NCBI GenBank assembly: GCA_000004985.1
Contig: GG739276.1
DNA length: 2,233 nucleotides
Source of the DNA: Naegleria gruberi
Lineage: Eukaryota
Direction: 5' to 3' (one strand)
This document shows, piece after piece, positions 88 through 2,200 of this stretch (its first letter is position 1; each line of letters opens with the position of its first letter). The notes under the pieces are model-generated. The model was not told the DNA's origin and did not search any database. It worked only from the letters and a program-made list of their open reading frames with translations. Position numbers and translations under genes: made by a program.

Positions 88-99
88 CTATATGATAGA
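88..99 (+). promoter_or_regulatory. TATA-like element (ctatatgataga) about 25-35 bp upstream of the tRNA-like 5' end
   Basis: AT-rich TATAT motif at -34 to -30 relative to position 123. Upstream TATA-like elements accompany pol III tRNA genes in some eukaryotes (plants, yeasts). Weak, purely positional. Confidence 0.15.
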
Positions 100-122: not shown

Positions 123-255
123 TCGGGTGTGGTATAGTGGTAGCATTCCAGACTGTCACTCTGGCGACCCGGGTTCAATTTGTTTTGTTAGTGTGTGAGT
201 TAGTTGAATGGTATCGGTCATTCCTTATTTGGAAATTTCATTCCCGGTACCCATG
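123..255 (+). tRNA. tRNA-Asp(GTC)-like gene, interrupted. The 5' 58 nt (123-180) are contiguous through the T-loop. The 3' T-stem strand plus acceptor 3' strand plus discriminator (243-255, CCCGG TACCCAT G) is displaced by a 62-nt insert (181-242) located between T-loop and T-stem. Probable pseudogene or tRNA-derived repeat unit (unit A).
   Basis: Read directly. Acceptor 5' strand tcgggtg (123-129). T8 G9 (130-131). D arm GTAT-AGTGGTA-GCAT (132-146) with an A-box-like TGGTATAGTGG. Anticodon stem CCAGA/TCTGG (148-152 / 160-164) with loop CTGTCAC, giving anticodon GTC = Asp. Variable region CGAC. T-stem 5' strand CCGGG (169-173). T-loop TTCAATT (174-180). The expected CCCGG does not follow the loop; it appears at 243-247, followed by TACCCAT. 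TACCCAT pairs with 5 of the 7 acceptor positions (mismatches at pairs 1 and 2). The stretch GACCCGGGTTC resembles plant-type cytosolic tRNA-Asp. Confidence 0.55.
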
Positions 256-262
256 GTATGAA
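231..262 (+). repeat. Conserved 32-nt 3' module, copy A: ggaaatttcattcccggtacccatggtatgaa
   Basis: 31 of 32 positions identical to the copy at 580-611. Contains the tRNA-like T-stem/acceptor 3' strand (CCCGG TACCCAT). Flanking TTTCAT/ATGAA inverted repeat. Embedded GGTACC and CCATGG palindromes. Confidence 0.6.
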
Positions 263-268
263 CGAGAG

Positions 269-272
269 TTTT
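269..272 (+). terminator. Short T4 run 14 nt after the tRNA-like 3' end of unit A; weak candidate pol III terminator
   Basis: gagagTTTTag. Four T only, in an AT-rich context, so weak. Confidence 0.2.
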
Positions 273-332
273 AGTTGTTAATCATTTCTCGAGTGGTTTG
301 GATGAAGTTACAGTTATGAATAATTATCAAGG

Positions 333-428
333 AATTGGCGTCACGGTAGTACATTAATAATGTGTTATTATTATATGTTAATTTGGCGTCACGGTGATTA
401 CTATGTGTTTTTAATAATTTAATATTAT
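333..428 (+). repeat. Two-copy tandem duplication with a period of 48 bp, sharing the core (A)ATT(T)GGCGTCACGGT
   Basis: aattggcgtcacggt at 333-347 and atttggcgtcacggt at 381-395 (14 of 15 identical). The downstream parts are similar but diverged (taataatgtgtt versus tactatgtgttt). GGCGTCACGG is the most GC-rich block in an otherwise AT-rich spacer. Confidence 0.5.
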
Positions 429-490
429 GACAACAATCGGTGGTGGTATCTGTTCAACAACAAATCATCATCAATAATTAATTAACAATC

Positions 491-508
491 AGTGACCTGA
501 AGGTCACT
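491..508. repeat. Perfect hairpin/palindrome AGTGACC-tgaa-GGTCACT (7-bp stem, 4-nt loop)
   Basis: Read directly. Lies in the centre of unit B. Confidence 0.6.
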
Positions 509-579
509 ATTTAATAAACAGTAATTTAATAACCCAATTTATTATTGTTATTTGGTTGTTGAAGTCATCTTCCAAATTA

Positions 580-611
580 GGAAGTTTCATTCCCGGTACC
601 CATAGTATGAA
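580..611 (+). repeat. Conserved 32-nt 3' module, copy B: ggaagtttcattcccggtacccatagtatgaa
   Basis: Near-identical to 231-262. Differs by A/G at position 5 and G/A at position 25. Confidence 0.6.
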
Positions 612-650
612 ATCTTGAAAGTGTATACTGTGATTGAAAAACCACCAGTG

Positions 651-669
651 AATGACTGTAACAGTCATT
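651..669. repeat. 19-nt palindrome aatgactgt-a-acagtcatt (9-bp arms), related to the AGTGACC hairpins
   Basis: Read directly. Preceded by cagtga, so that AGTGA-ATGACTG parallels AGTGA-GTGACCT upstream of 689-706. Confidence 0.55.
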
Positions 670-688
670 AAACCAACAAACCAAAGTG

Positions 689-706
689 AGTGACCTTACG
701 GTCACT
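689..706. repeat. Perfect hairpin AGTGACC-ttac-GGTCACT, with the same 7-bp stem as 491-508
   Basis: Read directly. Stem identical to hairpin 491-508, loop differs. Preceded by AGTGAG. The accttacg of the loop/stem is repeated at 729-736. Confidence 0.6.
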
Positions 707-771
707 GATGGTGTTTAAACAAGTGATTAACCTTACGTTTAAATATTGGAACTATGAACACTTCTAAAAAA

Positions 772-802
772 GGAAATTCAATTCCCGGCACTCGAGTAAT
801 AA
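772..802 (+). repeat. Diverged copy C of the 3' module: ggaaattcaattcccggcactcgagtaataa
   Basis: Shares GGAAAT-TCA-TTCCCGG-yAC with copies A and B and carries a perfect T-loop-like TTCAATT. The 3' half has diverged (CACTCGAGTAATAA). Followed immediately by T-runs. Confidence 0.4.
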
Positions 803-824
803 TTTTACATTTTCTGCTTTTTTT
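803..824 (+). terminator. Cluster of T-runs (TTTT, TTTT, TTTTTTT) immediately downstream of module C; candidate pol III termination signal
   Basis: tttt 803-806, tttt 810-813, ttttttt 818-824. Pol III terminates at runs of 4 or more T on the coding strand. The placement directly after a tRNA-derived unit is suggestive. Confidence 0.35.
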
Positions 825-971
825 CGTATTATTTTATATTGATTTTTCATATTTATGTAGTATACATTGATGTCTTTTAAATTACTAATTTTCAATATTT
901 AATTATTTGTATTTCCAATTTTAGAAGCCTCGCCTTGTAGGTCATTTTTCACTAAAAAAATATCTAGTTGA

Positions 972-1082
972 AGAGCTGTGCCAAATCAGAATTTGACCTT
1001 ATTGTCAGTTCTGAGTTTCAATCCATTATCTAGATATTTGGAAAGCATTGGACAAGGTGCCTTTGGATCTGTTTTTAAATGT
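972..1082 (+). CDS. Stop-to-donor reading frame (no ATG; bounded upstream by the TGA at 969-971, so this is only the maximal open extent and the true exon start is unknown) encoding a protein-kinase glycine-rich loop (subdomain I): RAVPNQNLTLLSVLSFNPLSRYLESIGQGAFGSVFKC. Likely an exon fragment of a kinase gene or pseudogene.
   Basis: The frame with codons at positions congruent to 0 mod 3, for example tat-ttg-gaa at 1035-1043, is open from the stop at 969-971. IGQGAFGSVFK (1047-1079) matches the kinase consensus [LIV]GxGxFGxVxK, with an aromatic residue (Y) a few residues upstream as in many kinases. There is no ATG in frame. The frame is followed at 1083 by GTAATG (a 5' splice-donor-like site) and reaches a stop at 1131 if unspliced. 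Confidence 0.3.
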
Positions 1083-1134: not shown

Positions 1135-1374
1135 AGTTTGGAAATGGACGAAATTTATATCATTACTGCTGATTTTGGTTCTATTCAAAACTCCAATAAT
1201 TCATGTGAATGTAGTCAATCCAAAAGTATTTCATATCTCAATGTTAAATTGCAATCCAATCACGAAAAAAGGGAGAAATTTCTCTGTCGTTTGTTCTCCA
1301 CTTGCATTCAGATAATTATAATAAATTACAATTATATTCTCTTATTAATAGAACAAACTCTATCTACTGCGTGA
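1135..1374 (+). CDS. Hypothetical ORF/exon (SLEMDEIYIITADFGSIQNSNN...) containing an ADFGS (DFG-like) motif at 1171-1179. Possible continuation of the kinase-like fragment.
   Basis: Corresponds to track ORF 1138-1374. I-I-T-A-D-F-G-S resembles kinase subdomain VII, but it would lie only about 13 residues after the Gly loop, with no VAIK, HRD or APE motifs. The C-terminal half is low complexity (IIIINYNYILLL). Confidence 0.15.
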   Translation, partial: SLEMDEIYIITADFGSIQNSNNSCECSQSKSISYLNVKLQSNHEKREKFLCRLFSTCIQIIIINYNYILLLIEQTLSTA

Positions 1375-1759
1375 GAAATCTCGTTTGTTTTGGTCGACTT
1401 GACGTAGTGGAAAGCGTTATTGAAATTGTCAATCTTGTTTTAATTTAGCCATTGTAAAGAGAGCAGATATTTACCAGTGCCTCCAAATCGTGCACCTCTC
1501 GTGAGCTGAACGTAACCATCATTCATTGTATGGCTTGAGAATTGGGCGAGAATTCGAATATGTTTTCTATTATTCAACAATATCATGCTATTCACAAACT
1601 CGAATCCTTCCATAATTGTCCATTGATGTTGTGATAAGTGGTTTGCCTCATCCCTTCAAGCACTATGAGTAGTTTGCCTATCATGGAGAATGTAACACAA
1701 TTTATCTTGGTCGATGATAATGAGTTCTTCCTCTGAATGTTATTCAACACACAATGATA

Positions 1760-2200
1760 AAAAGAATAGGAAGATGAAGAGGATGGGATTATTGGGAGTG
1801 TAGCAAAGTACTAATATTATTATAATATAATATGTATTTAGTTCCAATGTGTGAGGTAGAAGGTAGATGTTCCTCCTGTGCTAACTAATTGCTGTAGTTC
1901 GTAGATGAAGACAAAAAGAAGTCTTGACTTGGTTTATGATATGAAAACAAGAGATGAAGACGAACAAGCTAATCCTATCCATAATCATTTGGGATTAGAC
2001 ATGAAGATAAAGATACACAAAGAGGGTATAGAGCAATTCATGAAGTGAATACAACCATAGCCACACAAGATGCTGGTTGGTTCTTTGATGATTTTTGTCA
2101 TTCAAATTATTGAAAATTCATCAAGCCTCGAACATGAAACTTCATGATGACGGAACAAAAGATATGAAAGATAATGAAGAACAAAGACAATATTGATAAT
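1760..2200 (+). repeat. Degenerate purine-rich low-complexity region with a recurring (G/C)ATGAAGA motif and rough periodicity of about 40-50 bp
   Basis: GATGAAGA at 1773, 1904 and 1953. ATGAAGA at 2001 and 2174. ATGAAGT at 2040. Segments starting 1904, 1953 and 2000 align: GATGAAGACAAAAAGAAG, GATGAAGACGAACAAGCT, CATGAAGATAAAGATACA. All + frames are broken by frequent TGA. Confidence 0.35.
1813..1840. repeat. TA-rich simple-sequence tract (taatattattataatataatatgtattta)
   Basis: Read directly. About 28 nt composed only of A and T except one G. Confidence 0.4.

Follow-up and report, generated by a model that had tools for sequence, protein, structure and literature searches.

A tRNA-Asp(GTC) gene of Naegleria gruberi split at the 3' edge of its T-loop, probably by the insertion of a mobile element

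How does a transfer RNA (tRNA) gene that is well formed up to the last letter of its T-loop come to lose all likeness to a tRNA one letter further on, and where is the rest of it? The question is raised by a stretch of 2,233 nucleotides (nt) from contig GG739276.1 of Naegleria gruberi (GenBank assembly GCA_000004985.1), with a GC content of 32%, which was analysed as a whole and is called the window here. The locus is a nuclear, cytosolic-type gene for tRNA-Asp(GTC) that lies in two parts. Our analysis indicates that it was probably split at the 3' edge of the T-loop by the insertion of a mobile element, a retroposon, which duplicated the heptamer TTCAATT. The parts of the gene, with the basis of each assignment, are as follows.

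123-180 (+): 5' part of tRNA-Asp(GTC), tRNA positions 1-60 (direct reading, ARAGORN)
777-783 (+): exact second copy of the T-loop, TTCAATT, right copy of a 7-base-pair (bp) target-site-type duplication (direct reading, pairing scan)
784-796 (+): true 3' part of the tRNA (ARAGORN, pairing scan)

By direct reading the 5' part begins with the acceptor strand TCGGGTG (123-129), followed by a D arm of the Asp type (132-146; GTAT/AGTGGTA/GCAT, with a single A12-C23 mismatch), a perfect anticodon arm (148-164; CCAGA/CTGTCAC/TCTGG, with the loop CTGTCAC at 153-159 and the anticodon GTC at 155-157), the variable region CGAC (165-168), the 5' strand of the T-stem, CCGGG (169-173), and the T-loop TTCAATT (174-180), which is the left copy of the 7-bp duplication. 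All of these elements lie where an initial annotation of this locus had placed them, and the interruption does sit exactly at the 3' edge of the T-loop, since similarity to a tRNA ends at 180 and there is none from 181 on. The initial annotation had read the next 62 nt (181-242) as an insert and 243-254 as the 3' part of the gene; the strings on which it drew, TTTCATT CCCGG TACCCAT at 236-254 and TTTT at 269-272, are present.

The 3' half was located with a pairing scan, in which each 12-mer 3' of position 180 was scored against the 5' strands of the T-stem and the acceptor stem with G-U pairs allowed. Only one site in the window, 784-795, pairs at all 12 positions, and any such site occurred in just 37 of 2000 shuffles. 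It consists of the T-stem strand CCCGG (784-788) and the acceptor strand CACTCGA (789-795), is followed by the discriminator G at 796 and is directly preceded by the exact T-loop copy at 777-783; by a rough estimate, full pairing and an exact T-loop repeat would coincide by chance with a probability of about 5e-6. Because the sole 12/12 site follows an exact repeat of the T-loop, the interruption is 596 nt long (181-776) and accompanied by a 7-bp direct repeat, and is not 62 nt long. The real 3' end of the gene is 784-796, not 243-254.

In the intact window no tRNA was called by ARAGORN or by an Rfam scan (up to E = 10). With the insert removed, ARAGORN calls tRNA-Asp(GTC) with 7/7 pairs in the acceptor stem (one of them G-U), 5/5 in the anticodon stem, 5/5 in the T-stem and 3/4 in the D-stem. 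This rejoining took 783 as the start of the 3' part, which leaves one extra T in the T-loop; the proper join, 180 to 784, gives a gene of 71 nt with a T-loop of 7 nt. The conserved nucleotides U8, A14, G18G19, U33, G53, T54T55C56, A58 and C61 are present by direct reading, the acceptor ends in the pair U1-A72 and the D-loop reads AGTGGTA. Moreover, G796, GTC at 155-157, C159 and G132/T146 match the aspartate identity set known from yeast (G73, G34U35C36, C38 and G10-U25). Both halves of the gene are essentially undecayed, with the A12-C23 pair of the D-stem as the one mismatch at most. Two flanking features complete the locus.

89-95 (+): TATA-like TATATGA, 28-34 nt upstream of the tRNA start (direct reading)
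803-824 (+): T-runs, T4 at 803-806, T4 at 810-813 and T7 at 818-824 (window T-run scan)

Judging from what is generally known of RNA polymerase III (Pol III), 803-824 is the putative native terminator region of the gene. TATATGA may be an upstream Pol III promoter element, by analogy with the tRNA genes of TATA-dependent eukaryotes.

Why, then, could the nearer site at 243-254 pass for the missing half? A repeat search revealed three copies of the 3' module, at 221-262, 570-611 and 762-803 (modules A, B and C), and 243-254 belongs to the first of them. The reading of a tRNA-derived pseudogene or repeat with a 62-nt insert and its own 3' part at 243-254 does find some backing: with 181-242 removed, ARAGORN calls tRNA-Asp(GTC) from 123-180 and the sequence from 243 onward, and the T4 run at 269-272 follows. 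The call is obtained when 123-180 is joined to either module A or module B, each time with the top two acceptor pairs mismatched. The acceptor stem with two mismatches that had been reported is mostly chance, and the true 3' end pairs at 7/7. Both 243-254 and its twin at 592-603 score 10/12, and about five such sites are expected per shuffled downstream sequence. Only the first 15 nt of the tRNA-like portion of modules A and B, from the heptamer to TAC, resemble a tRNA (12/15), and the remaining "acceptor strand" is unrelated; 243-254 is an internal junction copy. Given also the perfect 3' part, the exact T-loop repeat and the stronger terminator at 777-824, we consider the 62-nt version extremely improbable. 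The more general conclusion of the initial annotation, that an insertion or duplication event is a more parsimonious reading than a functional non-canonical intron, agrees with ours.

The interruption itself is a composite of repeated units, which overlap with modules A and B as listed here.

181-776 (+): composite insertion, 596 nt, three head-to-tail copies of one non-coding repeat (repeat search, blastn, alignments, Rfam, family scan)
181-235 (+): unit 1, 55 nt, 3'-terminal part of the repeat only, starting with TGTTTTG (alignment with the other unit ends)
221-262 (+): module A, the junction after the first copy (repeat search, blastn)
263-584 (+): unit 2, 322 nt, or 334 nt if 251-262 is its 5' terminus (repeat search, blastn, alignment)
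570-611 (+): module B, the second junction copy (repeat search, blastn)
612-776 (+): unit 3, 165 nt, homologous to the last ~170 nt of unit 2 (local alignment)

Over 42 nt, module A matches module B at 88% identity (blastn E 3.6e-10), and the two are built alike, with a hairpin TTCC-N6-GGAA (221-234 and 570-583), the heptamer TTTCATT (236-242 and 585-591), CCCGG (243-247 and 592-596), TAC (248-250 and 597-599) and a final stretch that reads CCATGGTATGAA in A (251-262) and CCATAGTATGAA in B (600-611). The homology of units 2 and 3 is seen in the local alignment of 625-775 with 414-583, whose score of 55 was reached by none of 300 shuffles (mean 33 +/- 5.4), and it extends to the last nucleotide before the T-loop-like heptamer. 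Likewise, the sequence 5' of the tRNA-like part of module C (762-776) is homologous to that 5' of modules A and B. The body of unit 1 aligns weakly by itself (its score was reached in 29 of 300 shuffles), and the significance of this copy rests on the match of module A to module B.

The units share their 3' ends and differ in where they start, so that they measure 55, 322 and 165 nt. Their ends read TTATTTGGAAA, AAATTAGGAAG and AAAAAAGGAAA, A-rich only in the third, and each of the three copies has retained a terminal 4-bp hairpin, TTCY-N6-GGAA, with a loop of its own; in unit 3 this end, TTCT-AAAAAA-GGAAA, abuts the right T-loop copy. Every copy stops exactly at T-loop/T-stem sequence, which for the last copy is the host gene's own 3' part. 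Units 1 and 2 end at a slightly different 15-mer, TTTCATTCCCGGTAC, followed in both cases by the same 12 nt, CCATrGTATGAA. Modules A and B have one and the same 15-mer, which departs from the T-loop region of the host gene at 3 of its 15 positions. The 5' boundary of the units, CCCGGTAC, resembles the downstream flank of the target.

Several secondary structures were seen within the units. Unit 2 holds a long imperfect stem (453-477/539-563) and a hairpin at 491-508, and unit 3 holds hairpins at 651-669 and 689-706. All three hairpins are near-perfect, and those at 491-508 and 689-706 have a common stem, AGTGACC/GGTCACT (AGTGACC-N4-GGTCACT), with different loops, ~70-76 nt before the 3' end of their unit. 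They are candidates for a structure by which the element is recognised. Within unit 2, the 13 nt TTGGCGTCACGGT stand twice as an exact direct repeat, at 335-347 and 383-395, 48 nt apart.

Some further matches link the insert with its surroundings. The stretch 280-295 matches 789-804 (tRNA 3' end and trailer) in inverted orientation at 14/16 positions, and 435-449 matches 121-135 (tRNA 5' end and two leader bases) directly at 13/15; both take in the flank of this very locus, and both are at chance level (blastn E 2.2 and 7.5). Fragments resembling the tRNA 5' end, at 289-295 and 435-449, were rejected as not above chance. About 110 nt 3' of the gene, 907-927 (-) shows an inverted 18/21 match to 761-781 (element end and T-loop start), and a hairpin-like TGACCTTATTGTCA at 994-1007 lies roughly where it would be expected in a further copy. 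An inverted fourth element end at 907-927 (-) was considered and rejected, as the extended alignment was not above shuffles.

What kind of element could have produced this arrangement? From this one locus we favour a retroposon. Copies that are anchored at their 3' ends and vary at their 5' ends are a signature of insertion by reverse transcription. The model accounts for the shared 3' ends, the varied 5' ends, the single orientation of the copies and the precise outer junction, as well as for the same end point of the flank (...GTATGAA) in both inner copies. The element would be a non-autonomous retroposon, for which a nick in the T-arm of the tRNA gene served to start target-primed reverse transcription. 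The copy adjoining the native 3' part would have been primed precisely at the end of the element, after which the reverse transcriptase might have switched twice, to further element RNAs that still bore read-through flank from an earlier tRNA-type insertion site; every copy would have been left truncated at its 5' end. The inner junctions appear to have been brought in from elsewhere because their 15-mers are identical to each other and yet 3 of 15 positions off the host, while the 71 nt of the host gene are undecayed. Most likely they derive from a previous insertion into a site of this type, and an origin by duplication in place followed by drift is unlikely. The repeat family would then have met the T-loop/T-stem sequence at the same nucleotide at least two times, which suggests that the element prefers the tRNA T-arm as a target.

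Comparable behaviour has been described. Partial tandems, read-through and template jumps are known for retroelements (PMC3846280), and the site-specific retrotransposons without long terminal repeats (non-LTR; R1, R2, NeSL, Utopia, Keno, Mutsu and Dewa) and the Penelope-like elements that form partial tandems resemble our insert in the precise 3' junction at one target nucleotide, the variable 5' ends, the head-to-tail partial tandems, the carried flank and the conserved 3'-terminal structure. None of the families that the cited papers name inserts within the coding region of a tRNA, the target of Dewa being a tRNA-Leu spacer (PMC3706591). In contrast to them, the insert holds no reverse transcriptase, endonuclease, tail repeat, hammerhead or other Rfam match. 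Dictyostelium TRE and yeast Ty3 are retroelements that also target tRNA genes; they land up- or downstream at a distance through Pol III factors and never in the coding region (PMC3706591).

Several observations weigh against a retroposon. The units end in neither poly(A) nor a simple repeat, the end of unit 3 alone being A-rich, and the window holds neither a reverse transcriptase nor a partner element. The 12 nt common to the 5' boundaries of units 2 and 3 could equally be the conserved 5' terminus of a cut-and-paste element, and the symmetric CCGGG-N7-CCCGG also resembles the core site of a recombinase. A 7-bp duplication without inverted termini in a small-RNA gene would also fit Dada DNA transposons (PMC3706591). 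Finally, no second locus was found in the collections searched, so that mobility and target preference rest on one locus.

The fit to Dada, the main rival of the retroposon, deserves a closer look. These elements target tRNA, small nuclear RNA and 5S genes (Kojima and Jurka 2013, PMC3706591; Kojima 2022, PMC8869645), and they show duplications of 6-7 bp, no inverted termini, subterminal motifs that are found in the target, tandem insertions, and tRNA-Asp among their targets (PMC3706591, PMC8869645). If the units were copies of a non-autonomous Dada-like (DDE) transposon aimed at the tRNA T-arm, staggered cuts at both stem/loop boundaries would give the 7-bp duplication and repeated insertion at the same site would give the tandem array, with CCCGGTACCCATrGTATGAA as an element 5' terminus that mimics the downstream flank of the target. 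The duplication at the locus, the site inside a tRNA gene and the tandem copies parted by a target-like heptamer agree with this, and so does the repeat search, which found no terminal inverted repeats in the insert. As in Dada, a fixed point in a multicopy small-RNA gene is used, target sequence stands between tandem copies and target fragments lie on both sides. However, tandem insertion in place predicts equal heptamers, whereas the inner ones read TTTCATT and the outer ones TTCAATT, and the proposed 5' terminus is missing from unit 1. A subterminal inverted pair equidistant from the duplication was not found in the insert, nor was any other subterminal inverted repeat seen. A family scan gave no match for any open frame of the window, no transposase remnant was seen (neither a DDE transposase with DxxH motif and zinc fingers nor a clear derivative), and no homologue was found for translations of the insert. 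Within tRNA genes, the reported targets of Dada are concentrated in the anticodon region and the A box and do not lie in the T-loop (PMC8869645), and complete Dada elements measure 4.7-11 kb, an internally deleted derivative still having ~2.4 kb by its listed coordinates (PMC3706591), whereas our insert sits at the T-loop/B box and its units are non-coding and 55-334 nt long. A Dada-like origin therefore appears unlikely.

The symmetry of the core, CCGGG-TTCAATT-CCCGG, recalls another kind of event, integration by a tyrosine-type site-specific recombinase as in the prokaryotic islands that reside in tRNA genes, with the 7-nt T-loop as the crossover between inverted stem halves. Modules A and B would be attP-type sites with a copy of the tRNA 3' portion, module C would be the displaced native 3' end (attR), and units 2 and 3 would be small elements mobilised in trans and integrated in tandem. 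In its favour, the core recurs as a direct repeat at each boundary, the far side carries the displaced native 3' end, ARAGORN draws a cloverleaf from the 5' part and the element-borne module, and units 2 and 3 start and finish with the same sequences. Prokaryotic integrases are known to prefer crossover within the T-loop, as reportedly described by Williams in 2002. The locus shares with prokaryotic islands and proviruses in tRNA genes the partial tRNA 3' repeats at the borders, the displaced native 3' end and the 7-nt loop between symmetric stem halves as the point of exchange. It is unlike them in its eukaryote-type context, the lack of an integrase, the unrestored left junction and the size of the element, which is a few hundred bases. 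At that junction, 55 nt of the element 3' end stand between the T-loop and module A, and two acceptor pairs are mismatched. The crossover heptamers are unequal (TTTCATT and TTCAATT), which is normally a block to such chemistry, and no recombinase gene is present in the window. No eukaryotic recombinase-type element is known to target tRNA genes, which further counts against this explanation, as does the eukaryote type of the tRNA; the window had no match in prokaryotic or viral collections. Taken together, we regard integration of this type as highly unlikely.

A different possibility is that the interruption is removed and the gene works, either as a giant non-canonical intron at a bulge-helix-bulge-like motif made by the two copies of the T-loop or as germline-limited DNA that is excised between 7-bp pointers as in spirotrich ciliates. 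What speaks for this reading is that the gene halves are undecayed beside clearly diverged internal repeats (88% identity between A and B, and units 2 and 3 far less alike). A junction motif can be drawn, consisting of the T-stem, a UUC bulge, AAUU:AAUU, a second UUC bulge and a U-rich:A-rich helix. The full 674-nt RNA folds better than its shuffles (z = -3.35) with the acceptor stem closed, although this predicted fold would owe its z-score to the hairpins and is little guide to splicing. The non-canonical tRNA introns known from archaea, Cyanidioschyzon merolae and nucleomorphs (PMC4090602) are similar in that the T-arm of an otherwise perfect tRNA is interrupted here and a bulge-helix-bulge-like motif can be drawn at the junctions. 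Our insert is unlike them in its internal Pol III stops, its repeated junction-bearing units and the plain 7-bp direct repeat. Its 596 nt are roughly six-fold or more above the lengths of known non-canonical tRNA introns. In a mini-substrate the drawable motif (3-nt bulge, 4 bp, 3-nt bulge) is less stable than the minimum-free-energy fold by 3.2 kcal/mol, and such geometry is automatic for any 7-nt repeat that ends in the palindrome AATT. Eukaryotic non-canonical tRNA introns that were described from the Guillardia nucleomorph measure 3-24 nt, and short insertions in the D- or T-arm of nuclear tRNA genes are regarded as pseudogenes, both of which weigh against removal (PMC4090602). Reading TAA/TAG or TGA as sense gave no convincing genes and no sign of a ciliate, and a ciliate or other alternative genetic code was rejected on this ground. 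We therefore assign removal from RNA or DNA only a very slight probability. The same slight chance is given to the bolder version, in which an undescribed family homes to the tRNA T-loop/B box and its 7-nt duplication (UUC+AAUU) either makes a bulge-helix-bulge-like motif with the T-stem or serves as a 7-bp pointer for DNA elimination. The insertion would then be removed from RNA or from somatic DNA and the host tRNA would keep its function, so that a mobile element would pass for a tRNA intron.

The state of the promoter and of the transcription unit also argues against removal. The B box is split, GGTTCAATT being followed at 181-182 by TG and not CC, so that its last two C residues are lost. 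On the coding strand the insert carries three T-runs that would stop Pol III, T4 at 183-186, T4 at 269-272 and T5 at 408-412, the first of which lies within unit 1 and starts 3 nt past the T-loop. Because of the split B box and this T4 run 3 nt into the insert, Pol III would yield a truncated 5' fragment at most, and the interrupted tRNA-Asp gene is, to judge from these sequence features, very probably inactive. The initial annotation had favoured a tRNA-derived pseudogene or repeat; inactivity is what we also arrive at, but to speak of a decayed pseudogene would be inexact, the halves being essentially intact.

A number of other element types were considered and rejected. A Helitron was dismissed as there is no A|T junction with TC...CTRR ends, and a TRIM/Helenus-type LTR element with a tRNA-like LTR (PMC10886601) as the repeats span only ~47 nt, with no TG...CA ends and no primer-binding site. 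The head of a tRNA-derived short interspersed element is excluded by the perfect distal 3' half. Small nucleolar RNA or ribozyme cargo was likewise rejected, an Rfam scan of the insert up to E = 10 having returned no family, the hammerhead included.

Searches for relatives of the locus were negative throughout. Exact scans with a 30-mer of the tRNA (151-180) gave no match in collections of viral sequences, metagenomes and prokaryote genomes. When the A/B module was scanned for in the same way, the last two collections gave none, and the viral one gave a single chance 19-mer match within a viral coding region. The whole window had no blastn match in phage and plasmid collections, and 18 of its open reading frames were absent from the protein collection. 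Protein searches with the open reading frame across the tRNA and module A, with a 99-codon minus-strand frame and with multi-frame translations of the insert were empty.

The rest of the window contains little that can be interpreted. The 99-codon frame just mentioned, at 1443-1739 (-), has a single in-frame TGA (...HDRQTTHSA*RDEANHLSQHQW...GGTGKYLL...). It has no Pfam match and no homologue; an exhaustive search with 1443-1655 (-) returned only repeat-driven matches to repetitive proteins. At 1036-1078 (+) there is a frame resembling the glycine loop of protein kinases, ESIGQGAFGSVFKC, for which Pfam Pkinase gave E = 0.1, below threshold, and within ~100 nt of it, in another frame, ~1138-1185 (+) encodes a DFG-like IYIITADFGSI. 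By their sequence the two stretches look like decayed or fragmentary kinase remnants and not like an intact gene. The weak glycine-loop match, the TATA-like box and the type of the tRNA (U1-A72, D-loop AGTGGTA) suggest an AT-rich eukaryote. The region ~1760-2200 (+) is purine-rich, its GC and AT skews are both positive and GATGAAGA/ATGAAGA motifs recur in it; it matches no family and contains no reading frame that convinces.

That a mobile element inserts into a tRNA gene and kills it is common biology, and it is the element family that is uncharacterised. This repeat family abuts the T-loop/T-stem at the same nucleotide in at least two junction types, and the T-arm is not among the tRNA targets of transposons reported in PMC8869645. 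The locus also calls for caution in tRNA annotation, where a junction copy close by can be taken for the missing 3' half and hint at an exotic intron of small size, the true half being ~600 nt distant. If the insertion reading is true, intact paralogues, that is empty sites, would read ...CCGGGTTCAATTCCCGGCACTCGAG. Should many such insertions exist in the source genome, this family would join the few elements that home into small-RNA genes and bring a target site that is new among them.

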